Notes: a model not told the origin generated them from the sequence alone. A DNA stretch of 63,708 nucleotides, filler included, from Reticulomyxa filosa (GCA_000512085.1; 16 parts of 16 records of this genome joined end to end with filler, not necessarily neighbours in it); one strand, 5' to 3'. Shown: positions 15,410 to 63,485, counted from the first letter of the whole stretch. Numbers and translations: made by a program.

Positions 15410-15727
15410 CTATGCGCTGGTCTTGGTGTCAAGGACAATTCCATCAGTGTTTTGAGGGGCATCAGCAACTTCAAAAATTTCAGATTCAGGAGCTTTGCCA
15501 TCGGCTTGAGCATTTTTAATGAATGTATTATACAAAATACCGGCACAAGCGCCACCAGTGAATTCCGCAATCCAAAAGACGTAAAAGTGGTAAACGTAAA
15601 AGGGTTCGTTTTTACCAGCAGCAGCAGAGGCAGCACAGACAGCCCCAACCCAAACTGCTGGATTGATGATACATCCACTGATACTACCAACAGTGTAGGC
15701 GGACAACATCAAAGTTGTACCTTTTTT
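15410..15727 (-). CDS. Aquaporin / MIP channel, 3' part only (truncated by gap)
   Basis: GSISGCIINPAVWVG (second NPA loop) followed by YVFWIAEFTGGACAGILY (MIP TM6 pattern). Confidence 0.85.
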   Translation of the reverse strand, partial: KKGTTLMLSAYTVGSISGCIINPAVWVGAVCAASAAAGKNEPFYVYHFYVFWIAEFTGGACAGILYNTFIKNAQADGKAPESEIFEVADAPQNTDGIVLDTKTSA

Positions 15728-18648: not shown

Positions 18649-21076
18649 AAAAAAATAAATAAATAATAATAATAATTTATATAAAATGAGAGAGAAAAAA
18701 CAAAACTCGATGTGCGGAAAAATCGGCGATATGACTATCGTCGAATTTATCCCATTCAAAGATTGCTCCTGGCTTGGTGTTATCCTCTTTCTTTTCATCT
18801 TTTTTTTCATCCTTTTCGTCTTCTTTTTTCTCTTCTTTGGTCGTTTCGTCCTTGCCTCCTTTGGCAACCACAGCCACAATGGTGGAGTGTTCATCGAATG
18901 TGGTGCATATTTGAAGGTCGCTCTTGTGATGGCCTTCGAAATGCCATTTCTTTATCACAACCGCAATGCTGTCAGTCCAATACGTGGACAAAGAGCTATT
19001 GAAAGCCTTGCACTCTTCTGAGTCGTCAATGCTTTCGATGTTCTTGCAAAATGACACCAATTCGTCCAACCACAAGCGTTCTGCCACTCTGCCTAGCTCA
19101 CTTGCATCCAATTTCTATTGTTAGCATTTCACACGTTTTCGGTTATAATAATAATAATGAATATATATATTTATATATATATAAATATATATATTCATTA
19201 TTATTGTTATTATTATTGTGTCAATGTGTTACAAAACTCCGACGTCACAGGTGCCTGTGTACAAGAACTGCAAAACATATACAAATTGGTGATGTTTAAT
19301 GACGTTGTGATCGATTTGAATGATGACAAAATCGGCATTCTTTTGCTCGTCTTCCTCAAGACCTCCATCCAAGCCTCCGGGCTCACCTTCATCTGCAATC
19401 TTTTTGCGAATGCGGATGAAGCCTTCGATGCCGTTTTTGTTGATCCTCTCCCACGTCCATTTGTCCAGGTAGTGTCCGTCTTCGCGCTCTCTTTGTTTGA
19501 GGAGCAGTCTTGGGATCTTAAAGTTGATTTTCTTGTCAGGATCGAACAGTTTGCGGAACACCTCACTCGACGCGGTCAACATCAGTTGGTGTCCATACAA
19601 CGGCTCATTCACAAACTCGATTTCTCGTTCCAACGACTCCCCGCCCTCTTCGCCGTCATTGTTGTCGTCATTATCTTTTTTTTTGGTCGTCACAAAGTCG
19701 AAGCGCACATCCGACAAGTGTTCATTGTTCACCAACTTTTTCCAGTCCTCGCTCACCCTCGATCCTTCTATATTCATCCACGGCGCATGTCCAGCTGCTG
19801 GTAGCTCTGGCGGGATTGGTTTGGGGGGCACCTTTTTTTGTAAAAAAAAAAAAAATTTTGAAATTCCCCTTTTTTTTTTTTATTTAAAAAAAAAAGTATA
19901 CATTTGGTTTGGCCTTTGATTCCGATTTTCCGATGGACCATCCAAACCCCGCACTTTTTTTAGCCTTGATATTAACCGACAGTGCAGAGCGTATAGCAGT
20001 ATCAAATAACAATTTTATATTGACCTATCGATTTATGATCGTGCTGAAATGATTCTCACCTCTTGGAAACTGTACTGCTGTTTCACACAAAACAAAACTG
20101 ATGTAAGTGAACTGGCGATAATGCATTGCGAAGCTCCTAGTTTGGTGGCCAGCGTCTCAGCATCTTTTTGGAGGACGAAATTGTTATTAATTTTTCGGGA
20201 AACCTCAAGATCGCCATAGAGATCCGACTTGAGACCGACCAAAAGGAAAGGAGTGCTTGGACAATGATGCCGTATTTCGGGGACCCATTTGGACTCAATG
20301 TTTTCGAACGATGATTTACTGACTACGCTGAAGCACACTAAAAATACATCTGTTTGCGGGTAGGACAGTGGTCTGAGTCGATCATAATCTTCTTGTCCAG
20401 CTTTTCGTATCAGTGTTGTTATTAACTTGGGGTTTATGGCTTTTTTTTTCCCCTCCCACTCATCGAAACACAGATCAAAGAAAAACCCATCAAAGGAGCT
20501 CATCAAAAAGATTTCATTTTTACCTGTATCCCAAATGCCCAGCCTTTTTTTTTTTTTTTGTGTGCATATGTTTGTGTTGCTTGTTTATTTGTCATTCAAG
20601 CAAAGGGGTGAAACGTGTACTGCTCGGACATTCTTATAATAGCATATACGCTACTCTTTTTTTTTTGTACGCAGCGTTGAAATAGTATACATACATATAT
20701 ATGTAATTGTCAACTGTTATGGGCTTTTCGTCAACCATCACATTGGCACTGTAATTATCGAACACCTTTTTTTTTTAAATGACTTGTTCGCAAGTATTGC
20801 AAAAATACAGGTCGGACATTTTTGTGGATATCCTTGTTTGGTCATAGATTAAACGAAAATATATGTATTCATTAGTAAACACACGAAGCACACACTGTTG
20901 GCACGTATTCTGATGGAAACGAGTTGGTAGTATACGATATGCACAGACACGACTTTCCAACGGCTCCTGTTGTTTTGTTTTGCACAGTTTGGACTATTCT
21001 TTCCAACGGACAAAAAACCGAAAATATCCTATTTTAACACACCATCGCCGACAATGACCAATTTCACGTTTTGCAT
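18649..21076 (-). CDS. RhoBTB-like protein (Rac-like GTPase + BTB domains), 3' end in gap
   Basis: [56 protein letters not shown] and [11 protein letters not shown]. Then Pro-rich [13 protein letters not shown]1 (LSDVRF...[17 protein letters not shown]...VLQFLYTG) and the start of BTB2 (KSDLQI...FSAHR). Includes a micro-exon at 20524-20543. Confidence 0.88.
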
Positions 21077-22948: not shown

Positions 22949-23709
22949 TCACAAAATTTGACACCGTTTTTTTCCGTCCGTTTTCTGTTGTTTTGGTGGT
23001 GTCCAATCGTCAACTAGTCGAATTTTTCGAACAACTTCATAGAAAACATCTTCATTATTGATTTTGTCTTTGGCACTTGTTTCAAAGAAGTTACAATATT
23101 CCCCCCAAGTCTTGGCTGTCATTCACACATACATCGATGTTTTAAAATCATTTCATATTATTGTATCGTTTTTCTATTGTGAAACGTACCTAGCTTCTCT
23201 CCTTCCTCTTTTTGAACTTGCCGATATTGCGCTAAATCACATTTGTTCCCGGCAATTACACTATGAATGTTACAATATAATCATACGGATTGATCTTGTG
23301 ATCCTATCTCACTCCTCTTATCACAAAGAGATACTTTGTTGCTCTTTTTTTTTTTAGAGCCACTTAACATTGGAATTTTTTCTGTGTCTTTTGCTCTGCA
23401 AAGTTTTTCGTATAGTGTTTGCATTTCCTCAAAACTTGTCTTTGACGTGATGCTATACACCAAAAGAAATCCCTTCCCGTCTCTCATCCATTGTTCGCGC
23501 ATGGCTGAAAACTCGTCCACGCCAGCTGTGTCCAACAGATCCACTGTGACTGGCGTGTTATCAACACTTATTAGCTTGCGATAAGTATCTTCAATTGTGG
23601 GGTCGTAATCATCTACAAAGTTCCCACTTGCCATACGGACTGTCAGTGCGCTCTTGCCTACATTGGCACTTCCCAGCACTACAATTTTATATTCCAAAAC
23701 TTCAGCCAT
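22949..23709 (-). CDS. Ras/Rap-family small GTPase (3 exons)
   Basis: EYKIVVLGSANVGKS, YDPTIEDTY, LDTAGVDEFSAMREQWMR; exon 2 IAGNKCDL; exon 3 FFETSAK; CAAX KKRCQIL* with stop at 22949. Confidence 0.92.
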
Positions 23710-38075: not shown

Positions 38076-39424
38076 TAAATATAAAATTTTTCCAAATTCT
38101 TTTTTTAGTGTTTGTTCTTTAAATGCAAAATAAGTTTGTTTTATTTGTTTTGTAAGCTTTTTTACAAGAAAAGATAAACTTGTTAATTCGATTTTCTTCA
38201 ACAAAAATGTGCACAATCGCTACGACTGATCCTTGTGAACTCTTTTGTTTTAAAAAATACTTATGAAAAATCGCTTTGTATTGAAACAACAGGTAAAATT
38301 AGAAAAAAAAAAAGTCTTTTTGTGACGATAATCAGGAAAGCTGAGGCGCTTAGCGGTCGTTTCAACAGAATGGAGAAAAAGGGACCACAGATGATTAAAA
38401 GTCCTTGCTGATAAAATACTTTTTTTTAAAAAAATAAGTTTCGAATTTTAATGATGTTTGGTTGGTTGTGCTTTAGGTCTTTTTGGGCTGAGAAATGATG
38501 AAAATCTAAAGTGGAATTGATTTTTTGCCACTTGGGCTTTGTGGAATTTTTTTGGTATCTTTAAATTTGAAATTGCTAATAAAACTTTCAACCTTTGAAA
38601 TGCCCTTCAATTTCAAATGCTAGAATTTCTAAACGTAAAAATGTTTGAAGATGAAAATTTATTAAGACTACAATCTTGAGTATGCTTACTTAGAACTTTT
38701 TCTACTTTTTTTTGAAATTCCGATTAGCATAAAAATAAGTATCACATTGGACATATTGCACTGATTTTGGGTCGCATGTGTAAAACTGTTTTCTCTAAGC
38801 AAGTTAAGTTAAAACGTGGTAGATTTTACGCACATTTAGTTTGAATTGTTGAACGAAAATTGGTTTTATTTTGTTTTAACAATTTGAGGAAGTGGTTTCA
38901 TTGTCAACTGGGTTAGACTGGACATGTCCACTTTCAGTGTCTTTGACAATTTCATTTTGTGTTACACAAGTGGGGTCTGTTGTATTACTATTGCTACGAT
39001 CATCTCCTTGAGACTGTGGAAGAAAAGCATTGGAAATCACTCTTTTGCTAAAAAGTAAAACACAAGTATTTTATTTTTTTAACTAGCCGGGGTCCCTTGC
39101 CCGATCGTCGAGAAGTCCATTGTTTATTTTTAAAAGAACAAACAACGAATGTCCAAAAAACGGTGATGTTGAATGACAAGAATGTTGTCACTAAAATGTA
39201 TCATGTTCAATCTTTCCCACTATCTTTTTTCAAAACGAAGAACGGTTTACAAAACCAAATCATCTTTAGGAGTATGACGTATATCACATTTGGAAATAGT
39301 GATATAATAGAATCTCATAGAAAAACAGTCATACAAGTATTTCCTTGAAGAAAAGGGAAATAGAGATTGAAATAACTATGCAAACAAATTCGTAAATAAT
39401 ACTCAAAATGGCTTCGAGAAATTG

Positions 39425-39670
39425 TAGAAACATGTAAAGCAAGTCCGTAATATAGATTACTGAACTCTAAAAGAGTTGAGAAGCCCACAGTGGGTTAAAC
39501 TTCTACACAAACTTTTCTTCCATCTTTGTTTGTGTTCTTTCTTTTATTATGTTATTCATCTTCTATTTACTTAATTTACCTTTGTTTTATCGAAAACAGA
39601 TCTCTTTTTGAGTAAAACTTTTCGTATTACATTTAATGTCGTCTCTTATCAGCAGCAGACGTCCCACAAA
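39425..39670. repeat. Dispersed repeat family A, copy 2
   Basis: Same-orientation homolog of 1570-1820. Confidence 0.75.
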
Positions 39671-40037
39671 CAGTATAGACAAATAACAATTCCAAAATTA
39701 TAACGCTTTGACTGAATGTTCTTTTTCCCAAAACTCAAGACAAAAAATAATTTTTCTTGATTTTTTTTACCACACTGTGGTTTTCTTTGGTTGATCGAAT
39801 TGGTTTTTATTTTTTCTTCTATTTAAGGAAGCAGATTGTATGAAATTTTTATTGTGGAAAATTTTTGTCTGATAATATCTAGTTTTCAATGTTACTAAGC
39901 ATGGAAAAACTCTAGAATGTTTTTTTATAGCTTTATTTCTTATGCAAAAAGGGCTTGTTAATTGATATTATGTTTAGTAGTATGCCTGATATGATTTTAG
40001 AACTGAAGAAAAAAAAAGGATGTTATACAAAAATATC

Positions 40038-42341
40038 ATGAAAGACAAACTAAGCAAACTGAACAAATTCAACATCCTAATACTTCAATTTTCTTTCGAG
40101 ATTTGGAAGATTTGCTTATTCCACCTTTTGAAAGATTTTTATTGATCGCTTTCAAACTCGGAAAGCTTTGCCTACTACACTTTCTGAAAGACAACAACTT
40201 CTTATTGACCCCTTTCAAACTCTGAAAGCTTTGCCCATTCCACTTTCTCATTCTCAGTGTATACTACACAAACACGAAATCCTCATTTGTGGAGGTAAAG
40301 ACGAAAGAGCTTGTTATTCTTATCATACACTCAAAAATGAATACAAGTTTATCTGTGAATATCCAAGTCATGTTACATTAGATGGACACTGTGTAGTGAA
40401 ACTGGTAAATAACAACAACAAAGACAACAATCAAATTACTTTGTTGTCTTTTGGTGGAAAATATAAACATACGTTGGTGATGAAATATGTAAGCATTTGG
40501 AATGACGAAGACAACAAATCAAAGGAATTAAATGAATTAAACAATTACAATGAATGGGTTCCTTTTACAGACAATTACAACCATCCAATTACCATTGGAA
40601 GCGATAATGAAATTTATGAAGGAGTGCGTGCAGTGATTGGTGGACGTAACAATAATTTGTTATTTAGCACTTATCTTTATTGTAATATTAGTGTGTTTGA
40701 TTTAAATACATATGATAAATTACCAGCTAATAATTATATTGAATATCATTGCTTTGTATCAAATTCAGAAAATGGACAAGAACAAGAAATGATGGATATA
40801 AATCAAGAAAAAAATACAAAAAATTATCAAATGTTTTTGTTTTATAAAGATATAGGACTGTCAATTCGATATAATGAAAATAGCAACACTTTTCAATTTC
40901 ATCAACTACTTGTTTGTGATGATATTGCGCCATTATTTAAATATGCATATGTATGTATCAATGATATTATCTTGTTCTTTGGTGGGTGGAATATCAATAA
41001 TGCTGCTGTTTCAAAATCAGTGCATCAGTATTTAATTCGAAAAAACAAATGGATGACATTTAAACACTTTTTACCCGATCCATTAGAGAATTGTGTTGCA
41101 ATACTGAGCAAAGAAGACAATAATATACATATCATTGGAGGAAGAGATGATAATAGGAAAACAGTATTAACTCACATAAATATAAAAGCGTGTGCATTGG
41201 ATACTCTGCATCTGGTAATGATTTGTCTTTTTATTTTTTTGATGATCAATAGAATAAATTATATTACATAAATTACAAATAATGAACAGTCAAAAAATGA
41301 AATAAAATGTATCACTCAATATTGGATTCGAGTTTTAACGATAAAATTAGGATGGATCGATGAATTTAACAAAATTGTTATCAACTATGTTAAGTAATAT
41401 TTTTTTTTGTAAATAAATGATTGTTATTATATAATTTGCATTTTCAAATAGGTAAAAGGTTATCAATTGTTAATGGTTTTACAAGGACATGACAAAGCAG
41501 TAAGCAGTGTAAGATTTTCTGCAGATGGTCGCAAGATTGTTTCAGTATTATATAATAATACTGTTCGAATATGGGATGTTTCATCGAGAGAACAGCTTCG
41601 AATTTTCAAAGGGCATACTAAATTTTTCTTTACTGCAAAATTTTCACCAGATGGGCATACTGTTGTTTCATGTTCAAGTGATGGAACAATTCGATTATGG
41701 GATGTCAATAGAGGCACTGAGATAATAAAATTACAAAGAGATTTTGATGAGATATGGGATGTTGATTTTTCTCCAAATGGAAGATATTTGTGTCAGGTTT
41801 TAAAGATAACACAATAAGATTATGGGATATACATTCTGGAATAGAAATGAATCAATTATTAGGACATTCAGAAAGTGTACTTAGTACACAATTTTCACCA
41901 GATGGTAAAATGATTGTATCATCATCAAATGATACAACAATTAATTTGTGGAATGTAGAATCTGGTGAATTATTGAGACAATTCAAAGGACATTCTCGTA
42001 GTGTAACACGTGCAAGATTTTCTCCAGATGGTAAATTTATTGTATCATGCTCAGCTGATAATACAATTCGAATATGGGATATTGAAACAGGAATATAATT
42101 GAAAATATTGAAAGAACATACAGGTTATGTGGATGATATACAATATTTTCCAGATGGTCAAACGATTGCATCATGTTCAAGAGATAGAATAGTTCAATTG
42201 TAAAACACAGAATTAGGGGAAAGAATACAAATATTGAACGGAAATTCTGATATGAAATGTGTGGATGTTTCTCAAAATGGGAATAAAATTATATTAGGCT
42301 ATAATGATTGTAAAATCCGAGTTTTTGGATTATTACATTAA
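40038..42341 (+). pseudogene. Kelch-like propeller + adaptor exon + WD40 repeats (disrupted)
   Basis: Kelch-like exon to 41214 (ILICGG, LLSFGG, VIGG, LFFGG, HIIGG), phase-0 exon 41290-41388, and WD40 exon from 41452 (GH..V.SVRFSADG...IWD repeats). Frameshift at about 41790, in-frame TAA at 42096 and about 42201, and frameshifts at the 5' end. Confidence 0.85.
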
Positions 42342-42619
42342 AGGATAAAATTTTTTTTAAGATGTAAGAATTGAAGTAATTTTTTGATTGTGTTCCTTTT
42401 AAATATAATTTTCTGAAGTGAGACTTTTCATTACATGATATTGAACTTTGAAATATTTGCATTTTGCCTATGTCTCAATATAGATGACAGTAAATAAGTT
42501 TCTATTTTAATTTCAAGAAAGTTGTAACATATTCAGTGTTTTTTTTGCGTTTAGTCACTCTTTTTGATTAAATTTTGGTAAAATTTCTCATTATCAAGCA
42601 AAACACACAATTAATGTAC

Positions 42620-42810
42620 GTTTATGCTCAGTTTTCATAAAATGGTAAAATGACTAATCAATACGATTTATGATATGTAATATTGGGAAAAAAATTAAGA
42701 GATTTCAAGGAATTCAAGTAGTTTTTATTTATCACCAGACGGAAATAAGCTGTTTTCGCTAGGTTTTGTTCGAGTATGAAGTATTAAAGTCTGGTGAAGA
42801 GATTAAAACA
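42620..42810 (+). pseudogene. Degenerate WD40 fragment
   Basis: YAQFS*NGKM and SPDGNKL remnants resembling the upstream FSPDG repeats. Confidence 0.45.
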
Positions 42811-43344
42811 TTTGAACCGATATATACCATTTTTATGTAAAAAATAAGTACGATCCATCCAAGAGAACAGACTTGTCCATTTTCTTATTTTTTAAAAATT
42901 TATCATGAATGAGCAATTCTGAATCAGTTTTTAAAATTTCTTTAATTGTTCAATTTTTATTGTCGCTCAATATTTTTTTTAATATTAAAATCTTGTTATA
43001 GAAAAAATCAGTTATAAAAATTTGTCAACGATACTCACTCTTTGGAAAAGCAACTAGAAAGGGAATATGTTTTATTTTGGCTTTCCAACTTTTTTCTTCA
43101 CTTTCGATATTCGAAAGCGTCATCTTTTTTTTAGTGAAGGGGTCGAACAAGAAAAAAGTTTGTTGTGTTTGTGAAGAAAACGATTACCTTTGTTTAGAAA
43201 ACTGAACTTTTTAAATTATCTTGGAGCTAAGATAACTTGTCTTAAATTTATTGTATTGAAAAAGAAAGAGAAAATATTTTTTCTTTGAAAAGTTTGATTA
43301 AAAGAAAAGTAAGCTGATATTAAACTTGTTTTATTTTGTTGAAC

Positions 43345-43590
43345 GTAAGTATTGAAAGATATGTTTTATCTTACTTTGTTGTTTAAAAAATTTGGAAAAG
43401 CTGCGTTCGATGTTTTTTAAAGAATTAAAAAATATAACCAATGAAAATTGTATCAAAATATCAAAATAATCTGCAAGATATTTCAAGTATTGTATTTTTT
43501 GTATATAATCGAACAATATTGTCTTTGTAATAATTCATGATATAAATCTTTTTTATTTTGAAGAACACTGAATATTATTAAAAAATTTAA
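43345..43590. repeat. Dispersed repeat family B, copy 1
   Basis: Collinear with 63245-63485 (atgaaaattgtatc.aaatatcaaaataa, caagatatttcaagt, taattcatgata, gaagaacac.gaatattatt). Confidence 0.85.
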
Positions 43591-43876
43591 AGAGTACTGA
43601 AGAAAAAGCTTGAACAAAGCAATAGCAACGTGTCAGTTGTGATTGAACAGATCACAGCCTCATTGCTGATTCAGAATGTAATTTATACTTTTACAAAACA
43701 CAATATGGTGCAGGAAGCAGAATTAACAATACTAAAATTTTTTTGTGAATACTCATTTCACTCCAAACAATTTTAAAAGGACGACTTTTTTTAAATGCAC
43801 TTCCCCCTTTTAAAAATCTAAACTACTTCATAGTTCCTTAACATTAACAATACAAATAACTAAATCTTTCAAAATT

Positions 43877-43943
43877 TTCCTCATTTGTGGAGGTATTTAT
43901 CAAAAGGCTTGTTATTCTTATCATATAATCAAAAAAAAATACC
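43877..43943 (+). pseudogene. Isolated Kelch-family first-blade fragment
   Basis: LICGGIYQKACYSYHIIK, a nucleotide match to 40281-40345 (cctcatttgtggaggta...gcttgttattcttatcata). Confidence 0.75.
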
Positions 43944-43984
43944 ATCTGATGAAAGTTGTATCTTTTTCCAAAATGTAAAATTTG

Positions 43985-44085
43985 TTCTGTTAATCATATT
44001 TGCTCACAACATAACAAAACGAATACAAATATTCAATATGGACATATAATTCAACAAATTTATGATTTTATTTTTTTAAAAAGAA
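43985..44085. repeat. Dispersed repeat family C, copy 1
   Basis: ttctgttaatca.atttg...aacaaaacgaatacaaat shared with 58757-58835. Confidence 0.65.
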
Positions 44086-45091
44086 AATAAATGGTTTTTT
44101 TGTAACAAGATTTAATAGTTTTTCTTGTTGTTGCAAAAAAAGAGTTTAAATCTGTAATTGTATTTTCTATTGTCTCTTCAAGTGACATTTTGTATTTTGA
44201 GTTTGGACATAACAACAAAAGTTCAAAAAAATATAAAAAATCACATGAATATGTTGTATATGTTGGATTACTTTTCTTATATCAGTAAATTAAACAATAT
44301 TTATTACATCATTATTAGCACTGTCACTATTATCAATACTAGTTGATATTAACAATGCTAATAATACATCAGATTAACTTTTGTATTCGTTATCGTGTAA
44401 TAACTATTTCTGTATAATATTTTTCCAAAGCATATTCAAATGAACATCTTTTTAGAAAATGTATATTAAATTATCGCTTGAACATTAGCATGATTATTTT
44501 GAAATATATTTAAATATAATTAATGACTAATGTAACTCAAAAGAAAAAAAGATAACTGAGTTGCTTCAATGTATGCTAAGATAACAATTGGTATTTGAAT
44601 CAAATCAAGATTATTTTAAGAATTTTCTTTTCAATTAATTACAATTATATCACTTATAGTTATAACAATTGTATATAATAGTAATTGTGAGAAAATAAAA
44701 TTCAGGATCCAGGTATTCTATTATTTGTCGAATCCTTAAAATTAATTTTATTTACATATATTATCTGAATCCTGAATTTTTTTCTGGCAAAAATCTATTT
44801 ATAAAGGTGTTTTCAATGATATTTTGACGACTTATGATTTGACAATTAAAATTGTCAAATTTATGCAACTTCTTAACATAAAATATTGTCAAATGATGTG
44901 AATTTTAACATAACAATAAACTGATAATGTGCATTAAATTAAATTGTGTTTATATCAAATTGATTGAATAAATGTCAATGATTTTATCTTATTCTTGGTT
45001 GTTGGAATGTTAAGTTAAAGAAAAAGATTGTTATTTCAAATTCAATTGATAAAGTAAATGGACGACATTACAAAATGCTATACAAACTGCA

Positions 45092-45590
45092 TTGATGCAA
45101 TGTGTAGCATTTAATAAAAGAAATAAATTTGTATATGATGTTGGTGATTACAACGAACAACAAAAAGATATATCACAAAACATGAAAATGTATTTTGATG
45201 ATATTAAACAACAGGTAACAATATGTAAAATAAAAGTGATAAAAAATGCATTTAGTGAATATAACATTAAAGATGTTAGAAGCCTAACAGTGTGAAGAAT
45301 ATATTACTAAATTCTATGAGATATTCTATACTAAATTGGGATATACTTTTGTTTTTCTGAATGATAAAGTGACTTTAAATGATATTGAAAATCTTCTACA
45401 AATATTAAATTGACAAACAAATTTGTACAAATATGATGGATTGATCGTACTTATTTGTGGACATGGATGCGAAGACATGTTATTAACAAGAGTAAAAAAT
45501 ATATATCAATAGGACAATTATGTGATATATTCGTTTCGGATAATCTGAAAATGTTTTGTGATTTAACGAAAATATTTATAGTTGAAAGAA
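45092..45590 (+). pseudogene. Caspase-like (peptidase C14 p20) pseudogene
   Basis: KVIKNA, FYEIFYTKLGYTFV, YDGLIVLICGHG (CGHG at 45456-45467), then DLTKIFIVE (about 45560-45586), truncated just before the expected ACRG. Stops and frameshifts are present. Paralog of 51609-52029. Confidence 0.75.
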
Positions 45591-46119
45591 TAAATTTGAG
45601 TGTGGTTTTGTTGTAGATTTTGTGTTGTTTAAGAATTGTACAAAAATATTTTTATGGTGTTTTAATTAGCAAAAATTTGGTCGCTTTTGGTATTGAAAAA
45701 AATTAAAAAAATTCTATGAATCAGAAAAAAAACTGTATTTTATCATCATAGAGAAAAACAATAAAAATAAAATAAAAGTTGGAATTTAAATAGTTAGTAA
45801 CAATTTCTTATTGTTGGAGAAAACGCATTAATAACAGTTAACTTTTATTGTGAAAATTTCACACAAAATAATGCTTTTCAATTGTTACTAAAAAATATTT
45901 ATATTTTGTTATAAATATTATATGCAAATACACTTTGATCTTGTGATCTAGCAAAAATGAATTTATAATCACTAAATGTTGAATAATTGATGCTCCATAC
46001 AATGAGCATATGCATAATTAAAATTTTGATTAATTTGGACGATTTAAATAAATCAAATACAAATTTAGGTGGATATTGAGTTATAGGTCCAAGTCTTTAA
46101 GACCATCCTCAAACATATT

Positions 46120-46480
46120 AGGCTAGTTGAAGATGATGTGGCGGTCAAAGTCGACTTCAAAAATGCTTTTAACGCATATAGAAAATCAATAGTTCTCAAA
46201 CTGGTGGGAAACAAATAACTGAAATGTTCGGATACTACATCACACACAACAATCTTCTTACCAAACAAATATATGATACAATCACGTTCGAGAGTCCACT
46301 TACATCATGCATATATACACTATTAAAGCGTGCAGGACTAAGTCACAAGCAGGAGGTCGTGCCACCAACAGCAACAACCGACCTGGAGATATCATGATTA
46401 GATTGTTCAACGATGACATGGATCGTACCTTCTTCGATATTGGAATAACACACAAAAATATAACAAACAAACTACCTGGG
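46120..46480 (+). mobile_element. Relic of an RLE-type (CRE-like) non-LTR retrotransposon
   Basis: RT motif VKVDFKNAFN (46144-46173), decayed RHN motif *YNHVRE (46274-46294), and, in frame with it, RPGDIMI...FFDIGITH (restriction-like endonuclease pattern). Confidence 0.7.
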
Positions 46481-46527
46481 AAGTCCATTGCCTTTTTTAT
46501 TTTATATGTAAATTTATGTCCAAACAG

Positions 46528-46785
46528 TCCGAAGAAGAAGTTATTCAAGTAATTGTGCAATACTGGATCAGTGTATTACACGCCAAATTTGGCTGGATAA
46601 ATGAATTAGAAAGAACTGTTGTCAATTGTGTTAATTTATTTGTATTTTCTTTTTTAAAAAAATAACAAACAAAAATATTTAAGCTGTTCAATTTATGTTG
46701 GCATGCTTCGATCGTCACTCAAATCAATTAATACGTTCGCTAGACATAATGGTATTATAAATGCAAACAGCAGTGTAAATATTGG
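46528..46785 (+). pseudogene. Adaptor exon plus decayed start of a WD40 exon
   Basis: AG/GT-bounded 102-nt exon 46528-46629, SEEEVIQVIVQYWISVLHAKFGWINELERTVVNC, homologous to 41290-41388. It is followed by MLRSSLKSINTFARH, resembling a WD40 lead-in. Confidence 0.7.
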
Positions 46786-47744
46786 TCATATGAGTGCAAA
46801 TGAACACGCAAACTTTAACATTTAGAACAGCATATTATAGAAGATGTAGCTAGTAGTATTGATATTAACGTTAACACATTATGTAATAATTTTCAATTAC
46901 CAATTCTTAATTTAATACAAAATCAAGGTGATAGTATGCAAAATCAAAGATTGTGACAAAATTATACATGTATGTGTAGTTCACAATGTGCTAATGAAAA
47001 AAAAAATTGTATGCCGAAAACCAAGGATTGAATGAAATCATTAATGCATACAAAAATCTTGAAGAATCAATTAAGTATTCTTGTAATACATTAGAACCTA
47101 AAAAAAGGACACATGCGGACAGTATAACAGATTATGACAAGATCGAAACGACAAAGACTAGCAAAAAATTTTGCCAATATACAAAAAAAGTATTGTAAAT
47201 AGAATTTCTCTATTATTTTGCTTATTAGTTAAAAGTGCAATTGAAATCAAAGAGAAAATATTTTTATTAGTGGATTTTAATCTTTTTTTCATATCATTGA
47301 ATAATCAAAAATTATTTTTAAAAGTCGTATTCTTTGTTATATTTTTTACAAAGTGTAATACGAAAGTAAGAAAGCTTTTTTGTTTCAAAAGACGTTTTAG
47401 TGAGAAAAGGGAGCTTACAATTTCTTTAAATCTTGTCAAAAATCAGTAGAATATCATCCTACATATGATACAAGAAAGTAATCAAGTATTTTAATAATAT
47501 ATTTAATATTTTTGCAAAATCAAAACAATTTTACTGTAACATAGTCCAAATTAGACAAGTCACACAACTATTGTATTTGCATGAATTTTGTATGGCCTAT
47601 CTTACTTTTATCAAACATCACAAATCTAATTTAAATATTTATAATTTGTTTTTTTGTTGAAGATTTTTATTTCATACAGTTAAAGATGATTACGTTTCAA
47701 TCTAAAATACAGCAGAACGCAAAGTAAAGTTGACACCTAAAACG

Positions 47745-47860
47745 GCACCTTATAGAAATGATTGATTTTCTACATGAAAAAACAACATTCAGACCTAATT
47801 TTTTTTAAAAAATATCTACAAATTGTGCACTTTTTAAATATCATTTTGGTTTTTTATTAA
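47745..47860. repeat. Arm of foldback family D (inverted relative to 50445-50556)
   Basis: gcaccttat..tgattttct.catgaaaaaacaa...aaatatctac.aattgtg...atatcattttggtttt matches the reverse complement of 50445-50556. Confidence 0.75.
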
Positions 47861-48957
47861 ATCTTTCCTAATNNNNNNNNNNNNNNNNNNNNNNNNNNNN
47901 NNNNNNNNNNNNNNNNTTAATTAATTAANNNNNNNNNNNNNNNNNNNNNNNNNNNNNNNNNNNNNNNNNNNNACAGGATGATATTAAAGAATTGAATGAA
48001 AATCAAATTAATGAATATAAAAAAGAAAATAATCAATCATATTCAATGGTAAGTTTTATAAAAATTTGATTGTGGATAATACAATTTGATTTTGTGATAT
48101 TTGATCAAATAAAAGATAATTATATATTGTCAAAGGAAACGAACGTGAAGATTATTGATTGTTATGCATGAAGTTTATGCATTTAAAAATAAAGATGCTA
48201 TTCGTTTATACTATGGTTTAAGAAAAGTAACCATTTGAGTTTGGGAATAAATTAGTTATAATTTTTGACTTCGAAGTTCTCTTTTTTTTGCGAGAGAATG
48301 TTGTTTTCATTATTGAGAGTCATGTCATCAATGTCAGTGTTATGAAGATGACGAGATGAATCGCGATCCACACTTTTCGAGTCATCCAATAGATGCATAT
48401 TATCATGTCTGCCAATCAGCTTTGTGCAGCATCCATAAAAGCAAGTCTACTAAATCCATTTCTGCTATTTGCATTTCATCAGAGATCTTTCTAGGTAGAT
48501 ATTTGAACTTTCAGGAGTTAACTTTATTTTCATTACTTTGAATGATCAAAAATTGTCAAAATTTATTAACTTAAATATTATTTTCTTTCAAAATTAATAT
48601 AGTAAGTTTTTTTTATTATCTTTATTATATTTTACGATTTTATAATTATATATAATATTTTCTTTTTACAAAAAAAAATCTTGGTTTTCTAGTATACATT
48701 GCTAGGCCCTATTTCGATATATTCATGCTGTCGTGTCTATGGAAAGCATTATTGGCTTTACTTTTTAAAAAATTAGTTGTACATACTAAGTCTCAACAAA
48801 TACAAAAAGAGCTCTGGAGTAAACAATTTCAAATTTAATATCTTTTTACCAAATTTTTACATATATATTCTATTAAAGATTAATTTTAATGAAGAAAGTT
48901 GTACTTGGAATATCAACTTTTTTATATTACATTGTAAATGTTTCTGATGATTATTTT

Positions 48958-50242
48958 TCAATGATACAAATTAAGTAATGTTATTATTTCTTTGTTATTA
49001 TCTTCATTAATCACATACAATTCCTTCTTATTTGATCTGATATTACAAAATAGAATCGTATTATCCGATGATCCAGAATACAAATATTTATCATCATTAA
49101 ATGAAATAATTAGAACACAATCAGGATAAAGTTGTAAATTAATCATTAAAAAATAATAATTTGTAATATTTTGATATCGATCATATGTTATTTCATTCAA
49201 AGCAATTACAGGATCCTTTATAATTGAATTGGATAATGGAAATAAATATTCTTTTGGAGTATCTTGTTGTGAAAATAACTTTATTAGAATCAATCGCACT
49301 AAATGGATATTTATTACAAATTTCAACTATATCTATCAAATCATTTTTTGACATTTTTGATAATGATTTTCTTTTTTTTAATGATTTCATTGTATTAATT
49401 TATTTTCCAAAGTATTTTCAATGAAAATTGCAATCTCTTGTGAATTCTACTCTTTTTTCATCAATTTCTGTAATTTATTAAATCCTTTCAATACTTTGTT
49501 ATTAAAATCTTGGATCTGATTATTGTTCAATACATTTTTTGTATAATTTAAAATTGATTCGTTCACTTGATTTTTCAATTTTATCTTTTCCAAACATTTT
49601 TCATAAATTTCTTGTTGTATTGATTTTTAATATTCTAATTGTGGATGGAATGTCATTCATCCAAATCAAATCCTTTTTTCTAATTTGCTGAAATTCACCA
49701 TTAAAATTCCAAATATTATCACAATTTATTCTATTTAATTTCATTCTCTTTTCTTCATCCCATTCTTTCAATTTCTTTTCCAATGCTTCAATTTGTGTTT
49801 TCATTTTTTTCCCATTCCTCTGGAATTTCTATTTCATCCTTATTTTCTTTTTCAAATGGAATTATGTATGGTTTTTCTAATTTCATTTTATTCATTTCTT
49901 TTTTTTAATTAACACACATTTGGCATTTTTAATAATTCATATTAACATGCATTTTCTGTTTTTTATCTTTTGCATTCCATCCATCAATGACATGAATATT
50001 TGCAAAACATTTAGATACTTCCATTAGCAATTTAAATTTGCATTCATTTCATGTTTTCTCTTTCATTGAATACCTATGTACATTCCTTGTTCTTTCATAT
50101 TTGCTATTTATTCCTCCAAGTAAAAAAATAAAATCGTAAAGATATACCAAATGAATAAATAGTGAAATCATTCAAAATAAAACAAATTGGTAATTTTTCA
50201 TACTGAAATATTTTGTTTTGTTCATCATATTTTATTAATAAT
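48958..50242 (-). pseudogene. Kelch-like propeller (3' blades) + linker + U-box + WD40 fragment (disrupted)
   Basis: LLIKYDEQNKIF..FLLGG..VHRYSMKEKT*N (about 49950-50242) aligns to the other Kelch copies. TPKEYLFPLSNSIIKDPVIALNEITYDR (49177-49263) matches a U-box start, and YLYSGSSDNTI is a WD40 piece. Many lesions. Confidence 0.75.
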
Positions 50243-50349
50243 NNNNNNNNNNNNNNNNNNNNNNNNNNNNNNNNNNNNNNNNNNNNTTAATTAATTAANN
50301 NNNNNNNNNNNNNNNNNNNNNNNNNNNNNNNNNNNNNNNNNNTTTTTTT

Positions 50350-50494
50350 AAATATCTACGAATTGTGTAGTTTTTAAATATCATTTTAATTTTAGTTTTT
50401 ATTTTTCATCAAATGAAAGATTCAAATGTTTGAAAAAATTTCGAAAAACTAAAACCAAAATGATATCTAAAAACTACACAATTCGTAGATATTT
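50350..50494. repeat. Near-perfect palindrome / foldback element (family D)
   Basis: Arms 50350-50400 and 50444-50494 are reverse complements at 48/51 positions, with a 43-nt loop. Confidence 0.9.
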
Positions 50495-51240
50495 TTTTAA
50501 ATAAAGAAAATTTTGATTAAATATTGTTTTTTCATGGAGAAAATCAAATAAGGTGCGTCAAAGAGATTGGAACATTGATTTGGTTATTTAAAGATTCAAT
50601 CGCCAAAGAAGAACTGCAAGAAAAAATATAGCATCATTGTGAAAATATTGAAGCAACGATTACATGTCTTGTCCAACAATTAATTGAAAAAGAGGTATTC
50701 AAATAAGAAGTGAATGAAACTAATGACATTAACAAGATTGTATAAAAGGAAATGGAAAAAGCAGAAATTGGAGGAATCAATCTACAAGGGTATTGCAAAG
50801 GTTGTAGTAATTCAAAAAAAAATTGTATTTGCATTGTATCGATCATAACGTAAGTTAACACAATTATTATTTTATTTCTTTTTCAATGACACAAATTCCA
50901 TTAACCTCTTTTATCAAATACAATTTATTCTTACGTCCCACTTTTATCTCTCGATTCAGATAAAATTGTATTTGCATCACCAATATTTTCTAATTTATTT
51001 GAAATAATATCTATGATCTTTTGAAGACAATGAATTGTTTTGCTGTTTCAAGATAGACAGATAGTATATCCGTTGCCGTCAATCACATCGTTGTTGCTAT
51101 TGGTTTGCAATTAATTGAATCCATTGAATGTTGCAAAAATATTTGAGACTTAGAAACAGAAATAACTTAATACAAAATAAAAAACAATAAAAATTTCATG
51201 AATCACTAATTTCTTTCAAAAAAAAAAAACAACAAAAATT

Positions 51241-53238
51241 TTATGAAGATTTTCTTTGTTGAAAAATAATGTCATAATCAGTTGTGTCTTGGCTTTCCAC
51301 ACAATACCATTCACCATTTCTATTCTCACGAATATCTTGTTTGATATTGTCCAACATTTTCTTCAATGGATATCCACTTTTGTATTTGGATTTGACAACC
51401 CTTGTCATGCAATTACTTAACAATGAAAAATCAGCAACTTGATGTCCTTGAGTAGTTGACCAAATGGTCAAAAATCCATCGTCATTATGTCCATATAATG
51501 GCATATCTNNNNNNNNNNNNNNNNNNNNNNNNNNNNNNNNNNNNNNNNNNNNTTAATTAATTAANNNNNNNNNNNNNNNNNNNNNNNNNNNNNNNNNNNN
51601 NNNNNNNNTACCTTTATGATCACCATGCCCACATATGATCATTACTAGAGCATCATACTGATTTTTATTTTCTCCAAGCTGCTTGGCCACATTATCTGTA
51701 AAGTCTTCAATTTTTTTTGCATCAATATATAATTCTTCATTATGTACAAATTCATAGTTCAAATTTTTTTTAAACAATTCTTGAAAGTCATTAAGCTCGT
51801 CTTTCACAGCTGAAAGTTCACCAAATGACTTATATTCACAAACAGCAATCATAGCCACCAATGCATTTTTAATAACTTTTGGCACTCTAAGAGGTTGCGA
51901 TCGTTGTATTTTGAAATAAGGCTTTCTAATTTTAAATTCTTTCTCAACAGCTTCATCAGATGTAATAATATTATCCTTCACATCCGCCAATTCGAGTCTC
52001 AAATTTTTTTCTCGCATGTCTCGAATCATCTCGGAAATATATGTATATACATTTATACATATATTTATTTATTTAATAAAAAGTATTCAAACATCAATGT
52101 CAGCTTCAATGCTCGTAGGTATGTCTTCATCTGCCACTTTGGCATCTCCAACCGTATCTTGAGCCTCAATATGATCTATCCATTTGCTCACATCCATTTT
52201 GATGTGTGTATTGATATCTTTCGAGTTTCCATTGCCGCCGAGGATATGGACAAAAGTGTTGTCTGCACTCAACACCGCTGTGCATCCCTTCAGCGCACTG
52301 GGCAAAGTGCAGTCAAATTTAGTCCATTGCTTTGTGGTCATCGAATAGCCATGCACCACATTGATTTGCTCTATCCAGGTAGAGCCTCCAAAAAACAAGA
52401 TCTTGTCACGGACACGCACAAAGCCATAATCATAAACTCCCTTAATATCATCACAAACTCCAATCTCACGAAAGTCAAAGGAGCGATTTTTTTCATCATA
52501 TTGAATCAACAATCCCATTTCTTTTCGGAACAATAACATTTCATTGATAGCTTTTTTTGCATTGGCATTTGTGCGTGCCATTTTGTCGATGCCTTGATCG
52601 CCATTCGACACAAAGCAGTGATAATTTGCACACACTTTTAGCTCAAATTTGCCTTTTGCTTCACGTTCAAATGTATTCAAATTAAACACTGCAATATATT
52701 TTGGATAGTATGTAATGAACAACAAATGATTATTACTTCCACCAACCAATGCACGTGCGCACCGATAATCATCCTCCTCTGTTCCAATCTTTTTCTGACT
52801 TTTCACCCATTTGTTTACATTTTCATCTTCCATTACCTTGCTGCTGCTGCTGCTGCTTTCGTCATCCCAAACACTCTTATATTTCATTTGCAAGGTGTGC
52901 TTCTTATCTTTATCCCCTCCACCAAATGATAACAGTGTAATCCCACTCCAATCTTTATTGTCCGGCAATCTCACCACACAGTGTCCCTCTAATTTCAATT
53001 TCTCGGGATAACTGCAAATGTATTTGTACTCGTTTTTTGCTGTGCTATACGAGTAACAGTTATTGTTCGAATCCCCACCACAAATCAGTATCTCATCTTT
53101 GTATATCACACACTGGCATCGAGACAACGGAGTGGGTAAACTACGCAAGGCTTCAAGCGCTGGCATGTTGTCTGTAGTCAATGTGTCGCAAATTGAACCA
53201 TTTTTACCTGTTGGATGTGCTACGCGTTTAAAGATTGG
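51241..53238 (-). CDS. Kelch-like propeller fused to a caspase-like (peptidase C14) protease
   Basis: Uninterrupted Kelch exon (open from the gap at 53238 to 52093) and phase-0 intron 52092-52030 (GTTTGA...CCGAG). Exon 52029-51609 carries NALVAMIAVCEY...YDALVMIICGHG (p20 with catalytic His). After gap 51509-51608 comes the p10-like DDGFLTIWSTTQGHQV...S, ending at 51241. Confidence 0.78.
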
Positions 53239-53338: not shown

Positions 53339-53668
53339 TTTTTTTTTTTTTATGGCCCATTGCGTAGATTTTTTTTTTTTTTCGTTCATTGTTTAGATTT
53401 TTCTTGCGTTTGTAAATACTGCCAACCTTTCGTAAGCGCAAATTGCAACTGTAACTGTCGGCTTTTTGTTGCCAATGCTAAGCTGCAATACTTTGGGATG
53501 TCCAGCAGAGGAGTTTTTTGGATCACTTGATTCCTTCCTCACATTTATCAAGTATGCAAATAGGGCAATTAAAACGTAAAGCATTGCAACGCAGGTCAAC
53601 GACAGTGCACAGACACGGCGCATTCTGAAGGACCCAGTCTCAAGCTTCCGCTGTTTTGACTGTATCAT
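53339..53668 (-). CDS. 5' end of a type II membrane protein, possibly a GT2-like glycosyltransferase (truncated by gap)
   Basis: Short basic N-terminus, TM helix, stem, then PTVTVAICAYER, similar to the first GT-A strand motif (VSVxIxxYNR). Confidence 0.4.
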
Positions 53669-54193
53669 CTGCGCTATTTGCTGCAAGGCTTGACGCGATA
53701 CAAAGCAAAACAGAGAAAATTTTCTTTTTCTACAAAATCGAGAAAAAAAAGGTATTTTTGTTTCTGATGAGACGTCCGTACGTACGAAGGAAGCTTACAA
53801 TCTAGCTTGCTTAAAGTCATTAACAGCTGGCTGTGGTCACTGTAAGCGTAAGTATCGAAAGAGTTCAGGATTGTTGAATGACTCAAATTGCAAAGTTGCA
53901 AATAAAAATTTCAAAAGTCAATGGCAAAAAAAATGTAAAAAAAAAAATGGTTCTTTTATTTTTGTTGGGAATAATGCAAGTACTCGATTTCAAAGTGTTA
54001 ATAATCAGCCGTGTTTTATTTAGTGGTGCTGTGCTATCATCATTAGTTTAATTATTTGAAAAAAGAAAGAACAAGTAGTATATGGTTAGAACGTATGATA
54101 ATAAACACAGAAGCCTTCGTAAATTTTGGTTTGATAGGTCCGTGGTTTAGTCCTCTCCTTTTTTTTTTTGTTTTAGGAGTAGAATATTCGATC

Positions 54194-58058: not shown

Positions 58059-58385
58059 TGAAACTTGTTGCCTTGTAACTTTACTTTTCGAAAATTCGCA
58101 ATATTCGTGTTGTTGGATTGGGCATTTGCCATTGTTTTGTTTCAAATAGCTTTGCAGACATTCCTCTCCAAATAAATACACTTGTCCTGCATTTTCGTGT
58201 TCATCACAATGTAACTCCACTGCGTTGTTTGCCATTTGCTTACAAATATAGCAGAATAACGGATTCAATTTCTCTGCTTTGTTGGTCAACAAAACCCAGT
58301 CTTTGTCATAACAACCAGAACTGGAAAATGTCTCTTTTTCATGTTCCAGGTTTTTTTCATCTCTTTCCACATTCAAGGCCAACAT
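58059..58385 (-). CDS. N-terminus of a RING-like / TRAF-type zinc-finger protein (truncated by gap)
   Basis: CYICKQMANNAVELHCDEH...GEECL..YL....GKCPIQQH..C: a degenerate RING Cys/His spacing of the kind seen at TRAF-like N-termini. Confidence 0.65.
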
Positions 58386-58756
58386 AATCCTTCTTTATTA
58401 TGATGAAGAGTTTTTTTTCTCCAAAAAAAAAAGTTGTATTTAAAAAAAGGGAGAATCTGAACTTTATAAAGTGACTGTTTTTTTAAAAGGTGTAACAATT
58501 TCAATGAAAAAAAGAGCAAGTTTATAATAAAAAAAACAACAAAATAGTCATTCCGAAAGAAGAAAGGTGGATGCCATTCTAGAGTTATCGATGTAAGTAT
58601 TGCAGTTGCGACACTATTTAAGTTTATTATTATGTATTGCAATGAATCACATTTTTTTGCAATTATTTCTTGAATTCTTTTTTCCAAGATTTCTTGTGAA
58701 TAACAAAGATAGCAAGCAATTGACATTAAATGTTTTTTGAAATAATGTAGGATTTT

Positions 58757-58835
58757 CTTCTGTTAATCACATTTGTTTTACATAACACAACAAAACGAAT
58801 ACAAATGTTTTTTGATGATTTTCATTTTTTTAAAG
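58757..58835. repeat. Dispersed repeat family C, copy 2
   Basis: Homologous to 43985-44085. Confidence 0.65.
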
Positions 58836-59175
58836 ACAATATTTATATCCATTGATTTAGTTTGTTTGAATTGACTGTGTTTCTTTCTCCAATTATGTTT
58901 TGTTATTTCATTTGTCTAGAGTCTCTTTGCATATTCCATCGATTTTTTTTGTGTTTCATCAACCAAATAGAAAATGTCAACGTAAAACACCTTTTTCGTT
59001 TTTTTAAAAGGGTCACTTCTTTTTAAAAAAATTAAACTTAAAAAACTTCAGTAACATCAACAACATGGGTAATCANNNNNNNNNNNNNNNNNNNNNNNNN
59101 NNNNNNNNNNNNNNNNNNNTTAATTAATTAANNNNNNNNNNNNNNNNNNNNNNNNNNNNNNNNNNNNNNNNNNNN

Positions 59176-62499: not shown

Positions 62500-63170
62500 C
62501 AATGAAACTTGTCGATAATGGAAAAATAATGGCATCGACGAAATTATTGTGTTGTCTTCTGTACAAAGGAATTCACAACGCACGCATTGACAATAAAATA
62601 TGTAAATGGAATCAATCATCGTTTGCCACTTGTCACTTCTCACATTGACAATGTTAATGTATTTCAATTAGATCAATTTCAATTTATTAAACACGCCATT
62701 TTATCAGTCTTGTGGTATAAATGTTCCTGATTTGTATTCAAATCTGAAATGGAGCAAAAGAGATGGTCGGAAAAAAAAAAAGTAAAAGGAGAACGAATGA
62801 CGCTGTTCTATAACATTGGAAATGATAATGTGTTTGAGTGCCTGAAATTGTATGTATTTAATATATGCAAACACTCCGTTTTTTATTTTAAATTTGTGTT
62901 GATTGCTATGACATATTATTTTAAAACTTTATTTTGGTCAGCTGTAAATCAGTCCCCTTTTTTTAAAAAGAAAAGCTTAAGCAATTGTTTGCCCAAAAGA
63001 AAAAAATGTCATCCATCACTCACTTCATTCCGTTCAAGTAACTGCTTCTCTCTTACAAGTCTCCAATGAATTGAAAAAGAAAAAGGAGACAAAGGATATT
63101 GTACATGATTTAAATTTGTGTTATGGTTCATCCAAAGGTCCAATTCGTATTTGGGGATAATTTTCTGTTT
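62500..63170 (-). mobile_element. Possible highly decayed piggyBac-like transposase remnant
   Basis: Ordered fragments across frames: KYELDLWM, RLV...VMDDIF, NGV..ID(Q)LK, VRSDKW, IVNACVVNSFV. These resemble piggyBac DNxF, GVD..DQ, RSxKW and xVNAY motifs. Confidence 0.3.
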
Positions 63171-63244
63171 TATGAAATAATAAATAAAAAATTTTTTTGT
63201 TTTGAAAAGTTTTATTAAAAAAAAATAAGGTGATTTGATTGAAT

Positions 63245-63485
63245 GCAAGCATTGAAGGATGGTTTTATTTTGCTTTGTTGTTTCGAAAAATTGAAATAGT
63301 TTTACCAATTTTTTTTAAAGACTTGAAAAGCATAATTAATGAAAATTGTATCCAAATATCAAAATAAATTACAAGATATTTCAAGTGTATTTTTTGTATA
63401 ATCGAGTAAGATTGTTTTTGTATTAATTCATGATATGATTCTTTTCTGTTTAGAAGAACACGGAATATTATTTAAAAACTTGAAA
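63245..63485. repeat. Dispersed repeat family B, copy 2
   Basis: Same-orientation homolog of 43345-43590. Confidence 0.85.

Follow-up and report, generated by a model that had tools for sequence, protein, structure and literature searches.

Plants (F-box-Kelch proteins) and nematodes (F-box and MATH-BTB proteins) have large families of substrate receptors that evolve by birth and death and vary in their binding domains. In nucleotide-binding leucine-rich repeat receptor (NLR) repertoires, such as those of fungal NACHT-WD40 allorecognition, a hypervariable repeat sensor is combined with exchangeable effector domains. WDSUB1-type ligases carry a propeller, a SAM-like region and a U-box, in that order. 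Here we analyze a stretch of 63,708 nucleotides (nt) from the foraminiferan Reticulomyxa filosa (the window), which holds four copies of a Kelch propeller family. The propellers are followed by alternative back ends: an adaptor with or without WD40; a helical linker, a PB1-like domain and a caspase-like protease; a coiled coil, a SAM-like region and a U-box; or TPR. We put at roughly 60% the probability that this several-hundred-member family, with its hypervariable face and alternative back ends, is a recombining cytosolic sensor-effector repertoire directed against foreign proteins.

The family resembles NLR repertoires in having a hypervariable sensor with exchangeable effectors. Unlike in NLRs, the sensor is N-terminal and is a Kelch propeller, and no signal transduction ATPase with numerous domains (STAND)-type nucleoside triphosphatase (NTPase) was present in the proteins scanned. 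Neither NACHT nor NB-ARC was found in the window pieces or in the 22, 12 and 8 relatives scanned, most WD40-class relatives lying outside those scans; three WD40-class relatives carry NACHT in their source name only. Compared with F-box-Kelch proteins, the family has no N-terminal F-box, and the same propeller appears also to drive a protease and a single-chain U-box ligase. No F-box match was obtained in the window pieces or the relatives scanned, and the adaptor is C-terminal. The U-box class may share the domain order of WDSUB1-type ligases, with Kelch instead of WD40, a long coiled coil and a weakly supported SAM region.

R. filosa proteins have been treated as caspases in a sister position to those of animals (Klim et al. 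2018, PMC5982838; PMC10565124), and an R. filosa caspase-like protein has been used as an outgroup (PMC10959488; bioRxiv 10.1101/2023.12.11.571055). The published proteins have the same species label and Peptidase_C14 fold as the family described here, whereas the passages that deal with them mention no Kelch, PB1-like prodomain or substrate pocket; the pocket seen here is acidic. Many duplications and a fragmented assembly have been described for R. filosa, in passages that do not mention Kelch (PMC11069148, PMC13746701). We found no literature pairing Reticulomyxa with kelch, or describing a Kelch-PB1-like-caspase protein or a sensor-effector repertoire of this kind; the genome paper of the species and its supplements may already list such expansions.

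Results

The propeller family and its back ends

A protein search yielded at least 313 near-length and at least 82 longer relatives of the propeller, with 320 clusters at 50% identity (E<=1e-30). Genome-wide statements in this work rest on predicted proteins, and architecture counts describe the best-scoring relatives gathered, not genome proportions. Among 308 gathered Kelch proteins, 59 carry WD40 downstream of the propeller, 58 the adaptor alone, 31 a coiled coil alone, 25 a caspase-type module (protease domain present in 20), 6 a U-box-type module (U-box present in 5) and 4 TPR. No downstream module was found in 125 models, many of which stop at an intron. The WD40, caspase-type and U-box-type back ends, which an earlier note on this DNA had proposed from the window, therefore all recur among these relatives.

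The relatives are annotated as R. filosa (119 of 119 named, with 120 listed; 82 of 82; and 30 of 30 in the protease-module list), as were all 30 representatives looked up from 108 new ones. Relatives made up 0 of 190 pattern matches in viral contigs and 1 of 313 in metagenome contigs; the lists of relatives are saturated by R. filosa and do not imply absence from other organisms. A 1.2-kb metagenome contig, L001, carries an intronless Kelch-plus-adaptor gene (52-1209, plus strand, 32% identity), so the propeller-adaptor pair is not confined to one assembly.

The protease module was also found after TPR arrays (5/30) and a Ras domain (1/30). Proteins in which the PB1-like/caspase module follows TPR arrays, a Ras domain or an ARM region include P0200, P0201, P0206, P0207, P0211, P0195 and P0213. 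In P0155, Kelch is followed by a different caspase-like domain and then TPR. Eight relatives (P0125, P0127, P0128, P0137, P0166, P0182, P0227 and P0254) share an N-terminal domain before the propeller, which resembles an ADP-ribosyltransferase (ART); it had no Pfam match in the five relatives scanned. P0143 has a different ART-like domain, at its C terminus.

Met-Gly is the start of 57 of 255 members, and 42 match an N-myristoylation pattern. These starts suggest tethering to a membrane from the cytosolic side. A transmembrane receptor was considered and rejected for this subfamily: no transmembrane helix was evident, and the best 19-residue hydropathy reached 0.96 for copy 4 and did not exceed 2.1 among 15 other members, where the highest value fell in intron-like text.

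Variability on one face of the propeller

The propeller is a six-bladed Kelch fold. The model of the relative P0047 (predicted local distance difference test score [pLDDT], 88.6) aligned to a Kelch domain with a Z of 28.0 and a root mean square deviation (rmsd) of 2.2 over 263 residues, and Pfam Kelch was above cut-off in copies 1 and 4 of the window. The BC and DA loops shape the substrate pocket of Kelch proteins (PMC3597819). When columns were ranked by variability in 109 main-clade sequences, the first 30 all fell in the BC/DA loops of the top face, bearing out the variable binding propeller that the earlier note had postulated. Columns above 2.5 bits in the same sequences numbered 31/111 at the top, 1/67 at the bottom and 0/137 in strands. 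This top-face variability was kept in five of five subsets (Fisher p 2e-6 to 0.007), and aromatic residues made up 20% at top sites versus 2% at bottom sites.

The four copies in the window

The window consists of 16 contigs joined by 15 identical 100-nt spacers, and the four copies are spread over the contigs at 36001-47872, 47973-50242, 50343-51508 and 51609-53238. The four propeller stretches that had been called homologous all match one family profile built here: 40213-41187 (E=2e-155) and 43874-43951 (2e-6) on the plus strand, and 49935-50247 (8e-7 and 2e-4) and 52189-53154 (2e-110) on the minus strand. The features are as follows.

40132..41214, plus strand: copy 1 propeller exon, complete Kelch, open frame (Kelch_2 27.2 bits, cut-off 21.3)
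41215..41289, plus strand: copy 1 phase-0 intron, 75 nt, GT..CAG (same site in public model P0087)
41290..41388, plus strand: copy 1 adaptor exon, 33 codons, symmetric phase 0-0 (E=1e-18)
41389..41451, plus strand: copy 1 phase-0 intron, 63 nt, GT..TAG (site shared with the public gene model)
41452..42341, plus strand: copy 1 WD40 repeats, broken (frameshift near 41790, stops at 42096 and 42201)
43799..43959, plus strand: copy 2 first-blade remnant (E=2e-6)
45029..45190, plus strand: last-blade remnant, probably of copy 2 (E=1e-4)
45294..45488, plus strand: decayed caspase p20 remnant (E=2e-9)
46543..46629, plus strand: isolated adaptor-motif remnant (E=5e-8)
47873..47972: assembly spacer, adjoining a repeat element
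49144..49257, minus strand: copy 3 U-box remnant (Pfam E=0.011; family profile E=2e-15)
49286..49934, minus strand: copy 3 linker, coiled coil and SAM-like region (stops, frameshifts, deletions)
49935..50242, minus strand: copy 3, final third of the propeller, U-box class (frameshift; truncated at the contig end)
50243..50342: assembly spacer inside copy 3, adjoining a repeat element
51241..51507, minus strand: caspase-like small subunit p10 (Asp at the caspase-3 Arg207 position)
51509..51608: assembly spacer (gap of about 55 codons that takes in the catalytic Cys)
51610..52029, minus strand: second half of the PB1-like domain and caspase-like p20 with the catalytic His
52030..52092, minus strand: copy 4 putative intron of 63 nt, phase 0, GT..GAG, containing in-frame stops
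52093..53238, minus strand: copy 4, complete divergent propeller and acidic tail, open frame (Pfam Kelch above cut-off)

Copy 1 is followed by an adaptor and WD40, as had been claimed: the two-helix 33-codon motif was found, and Pfam WD40 matched with E=4e-27 and 1e-29. The first propeller residues are tandemly duplicated at 40150-40250 on the plus strand, and the duplicated 5' leader upstream is out of frame as a result. Nothing had been seen behind copy 2. However, last-blade and caspase p20 remnants lie about 1.1 kb downstream on the same strand, and copy 2 is for this reason most simply read as a decayed Kelch-caspase gene rather than as a lone propeller.

The linker and U-box assigned to copy 3 are collinear with Kelch-U-box relatives over 50241-49126, but they form a broken remnant and not an intact gene. 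The 5' two thirds of the propeller are lost at the contig end, the rest runs through three reading frames with several stops, and the U-box scores 16.3 bits, below the Pfam cut-off of 21.4. There is no intron at the junction of propeller and U-box.

For copy 4, the proposed caspase would be reached by removal of the putative intron, which opens 522 stop-free codons into half of a PB1-like domain and a caspase p20. The PB1-like part of 51610..52029 covers profile positions 32-73 of 80 (E=1e-11), and the caspase part matches with E=1e-22. The acceptor, GAG, is the only AG present; those of six other confidently placed window introns are AAG, CAG or TAG. The statement that a phase-0 intron stands right after the propeller held for copy 1, whereas in copy 4 the intron lies about 32 residues later. 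The p20 of copy 4 is a family outlier (42% mean identity versus a family mean of 61%), and the p10 beyond the spacer at 51509-51608 is typical (63%). Because of this difference the join is uncertain, and it may link the p20 and p10 of two paralogues.

In each copy, the junction of propeller and effector lies within a single contig. A single 13-kb cluster, as read in the earlier note, is not established, because the copies occupy four contigs whose joins sit in multi-copy sequence. Locus-tag clustering of annotated members was not significant either (p=0.06-0.13, n=146); pairs within 1, 5, 10 and 20 tags numbered 2, 5, 9 and 17, against 0.5, 2.7, 5.5 and 11.0 expected. The birth-and-death mode that had been suggested is in keeping with the state of the copies, three of the four (copies 1 to 3) being broken with further family fragments nearby, and with the 320 clusters at 50% identity.

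The same decay could point to neutral duplication debris in a repeat-rich genome, in which the fusions would be chance neighbours or gene-prediction chimeras. The 125 models lacking a downstream module fit such an account, as do the public model of copy 4 (P0001), which is unspliced and ends at a TGA within the putative intron, and the relative P0186, which is fused to cyclophilin via intron-like text. On the other hand, the same arrangement of domains comes back on separate contigs, in 20 caspase and 5 U-box models, the catalytic Cys motif is kept in 28 of 32 relatives, and variability is found on one face while strands and bottom loops are conserved. This one-faced pattern appears to be the best evidence against debris, which we regard as quite unlikely.

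Probable partner change between propellers and back ends

A tree was built from 191 propellers, 3 having been dropped for low coverage. U-box-class propellers formed one clade (99*). Since they do so, and since the U-box junction has no intron, this module is fixed, contrary to the swappable U-box of the earlier note. The caspase label required 13 changes for 17 rows, and the WD40 label 25 for 45; both were still more clustered than shuffled labels. A single clade of caspase-bearing propellers was rejected by the approximately unbiased (AU) test (p=0.017, 40 rows), and again under a mixture model (p=0.004) with 28 rows that included 12 of the 17 caspase rows and the long-branched copy 4. In a centred Mantel test, with the per-sequence rate removed, propeller and caspase identities were correlated with a rho of 0.11 (p=0.21, n=10), compared with 0.40 and 0.67 in the within-domain controls. 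Incongruence of propeller and effector trees, proposed beforehand as a check on the repertoire idea, was thus found for the caspase module. The AU rejection and the loss of the centred Mantel signal suggest that the caspase and adaptor/WD40 ends have probably changed partners and that the U-box end probably has not.

These data bear on a different view, in which a few ancient fixed fusions expanded separately for proteostasis or developmental signalling in a giant multinucleate cell, and the scatter on the tree is the noise of a star-like radiation. The U-box clade agrees with that view. So does the analysis of blades 1-5 in the main clade only, where caspase monophyly was not rejected (p=0.054), and the uncentred Mantel test of propeller versus protease identities, which was positive (rho 0.45-0.63). 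The closest solved folds are, in addition, housekeeping cullin receptors. Opposed to it are the AU rejections obtained with deep members and the finding that blades 1-5 are as alike between the caspase and adaptor classes as within them; hundreds of one-face variants would also be hard to match to fixed self substrates. We consider fixed fusions improbable.

To locate the change of partners, we compared 12 caspase-class with 33 adaptor-class propellers. Between-class identity equalled within-class identity in columns 1-270 (z<=1.7), and the drop was confined to columns 271-326 (z=4.2 and 13.8). In three pattern-defined classes, the downstream module is predicted by the tail encoded in the propeller exon in 33/33, 8/8 and 4/4 rows, other tail rows being of mixed class or unclassified. 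Read-through of the phase-0 donor as Val was seen in 35/67 adaptor-type and 23/42 coiled-coil tails, the rest being mostly spliced models.

The earlier note had placed the swapping at the phase-0 intron, and exon shuffling at this shared intron could in principle be the main route to different effector exons. Conservation of the phase-0 donors that follow the propeller exon is in line with this, as are the symmetric (0-0) adaptor exon and the joining of the unusual copy 4 tail to the caspase exon in phase 0; the intronless gene of L001 indicates that intron content varies. Against intron shuffling, the module can be told in all 45 rows from the tail that the propeller exon itself encodes, and the class signal starts in the last blade. 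Moreover, the intron lies about 8 residues past the propeller in one class and 30-50 in others, and the U-box junction is intronless. Intron exchange as the main route is therefore unlikely, and the class signal in the last blade and tail favors recombination or conversion inside the propeller exon. True exon shuffling may still apply to the symmetric adaptor exon.

The caspase-like protease and its prodomain

Pfam PF00656 matched the protease domain of relatives with E=1e-18, and among solved structures its profile was closest to effector caspases (E=9e-10); the p10 piece alone had no PDB match. Copy 4 in the window keeps the catalytic His, the Cys falling in an assembly gap. Caspase-3 holds the P1 Asp by Arg64, Gln161 and Arg207, and MALT1 holds the P1 Arg by Asp365, Asp462 and Glu500 (PMC4626109). 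In this family, the Gln161 position is Asp in 27 of 28 relatives and never Gln. The Arg207 position, whose equivalence was read by ungapped extension past the end of the HMMER alignment, is Asp in 22 of 24 and never Arg, and the Arg64 position is variable. Because acidic residues replace the Gln and Arg with which caspases bind Asp, the protease is predicted to cut after Arg, like MALT1. Asp specificity is unlikely, and the "caspase" is probably not Asp-specific. Arg-Gly occurs in the linker of 20/28 relatives, where self-cleavage is predicted.

The likeness to MALT1 would lie in acidic residues at the three P1-anchoring positions and, by analogy, in activation by clustering. In contrast to MALT1, the family has no death or Ig domains (no Pfam match to either in the relatives scanned), has a Kelch and PB1-like prodomain, numbers dozens of paralogues and is closer in sequence to caspase-3. 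With animal caspases (C14A) it shares the caspase fold and the His-Cys dyad, but not the basic S1 pocket or the death-fold prodomain.

The prodomain is composed of Kelch, a helical linker and a beta-grasp domain; it is neither a death fold (CARD/DED) nor short. The domain preceding the protease models as a beta-grasp, with template modeling (TM) scores of 0.62-0.69 to beta-grasp models. PB1 was named in 6 of 10 rows of its structure matches, under the tool's naming bar, and no Pfam PB1 match was obtained in the relatives scanned.

The U-box region and the adaptor

The U-box was above the Pfam cut-off in 5 relatives. The region before it gave one weak SAM-type match (E=0.092), to an 89-residue Sfmbt chain, a SAM domain; no Pfam match to SAM was obtained in the relatives scanned.

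The adaptor consists of two helices with two invariant Trp residues and is too variable for a locus scan. Searches with it gave no usable Atlas match and three unrelated PDB matches at E>=0.78. KLHDC2, KLHDC3 and KLHDC10, which are cullin-2 receptors composed of Kelch and a C-terminal Elongin-binding helix, were among the best fold matches (Z 24.7-27.1), with rmsd values of 4.5-6.3 in those alignments and no sequence match to the adaptor. The first adaptor helix superposes on the post-propeller region of these three proteins, which the caspase-class model does not reach. The match lists of both class models are filled by the propeller, and KLHDC10 likewise heads the Foldseek matches of the caspase-class model, so the KLHDC ranking comes from the propeller.

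Surroundings in the window

Three dispersed repeat pairs, with 77-82% identity within each pair, were found: 47762-47853 and 50451-50547, near the ends of the contigs flanking copy 3; 43257-43591 and 63173-63484; and 43963-44033 and 58734-58809. The segment 50343-50520 is palindromic-looking and resembles a miniature transposon, and a short stretch at 46130-46200 on the plus strand resembles a reverse-transcriptase motif of a non-LTR (long terminal repeat) element.

Another decayed fragment of the same propeller family lies at 62599-62814 on the plus strand (E=1e-8). At 59030-59075 on the plus strand, a contig ends with a leader and the Met-Gly start typical of the family, followed by a spacer; a further propeller copy may fall in the assembly gap after 59075. 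A RING-like fragment cut by a spacer (58059-58394, minus strand; Pfam RING families E=0.007-0.2, under cut-off) resembles a different expanded R. filosa family. The start of a probable type II membrane protein (53393-53794, minus strand), heading to the spacer upstream of copy 4, had no informative Pfam match. Ordinary genes occupy 3451-4432, 9782-11671, 15413-15727, 19232-20584, 23281-23715 and 26842-30973 of the window; they include Rab/Ras-like GTPases, one of which bears a long insert rich in His and Gln, together with an aquaporin-like piece, a kinesin and a gene combining GTPase and BTB.

Discussion

The pattern described here is best accommodated by a recombining sensor-effector repertoire. 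According to our model, the BC and DA loops of each propeller would bind a different target. For caspase-class members, this binding would cluster the protease via the helical linker and the PB1-like domain; once dimerised, the protease would cleave its own linker at the conserved Arg-Gly and go on to cleave substrates after Arg. The U-box class, presumably an older fixed subfamily, would ubiquitylate its bound target directly. Least secure in the model is a possible recruitment of a cullin ligase by the adaptor. New sensor-effector pairs would arise by ectopic recombination or gene conversion in the shared propeller exon, with the crossover no later than the last blade. Selection probably comes from a pathogen, a prey toxin or non-self cytoplasm.

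We regard the evidence for a diversified binding face as good and that for partner exchange as moderate; the architectures are real and recurrent, and mostly decayed in the window. Several points weigh against a repertoire of this kind. No target, phenotype, immune context or transcript was observed, and all architectures were read from gene predictions on a single fragmented assembly. The overall top-versus-bottom rank test was not significant in 81 deep-branching rows (p=0.16), and top-face variability may partly reflect relaxed constraint. Regarding partner exchange, the single U-box clade, the unrejected caspase monophyly within the main clade and the positive uncentred Mantel test all count on the opposing side. 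In copy 4, the helical linker is absent, only half of the PB1-like domain is present, the acceptor is atypical and the public model is unspliced. Finally, profiles of F-box and SOCS/BC boxes gave no match to the adaptor, and the Arg207 position was aligned by extension.

A more specific version can be put forward only tentatively, and we think it rather doubtful as a whole: an NTPase-free foraminiferan innate immune or self/non-self system, in which Kelch sensors by the hundred, under diversifying selection, are re-coupled through gene conversion to ubiquitin ligases and to a caspase-like protease that is PB1-clustered and Arg-specific, the adaptor being an unrecognised cullin-recruiting box. 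What stands of the earlier note is the repertoire idea; swapping at the intron, an exchangeable U-box and clustering within 13 kb are not borne out.

Taken one by one, the proteins are already public under generic names; the novelty is the logic at the level of the family. Cell-autonomous immunity in Rhizaria is almost unstudied, and one scaffold with one variable face and three outputs provides testable candidates. The predicted Arg specificity bears on the published case for true caspases in R. filosa. If the more specific version above is true, the protist "caspases" that root animal caspase trees would not be Asp-specific.

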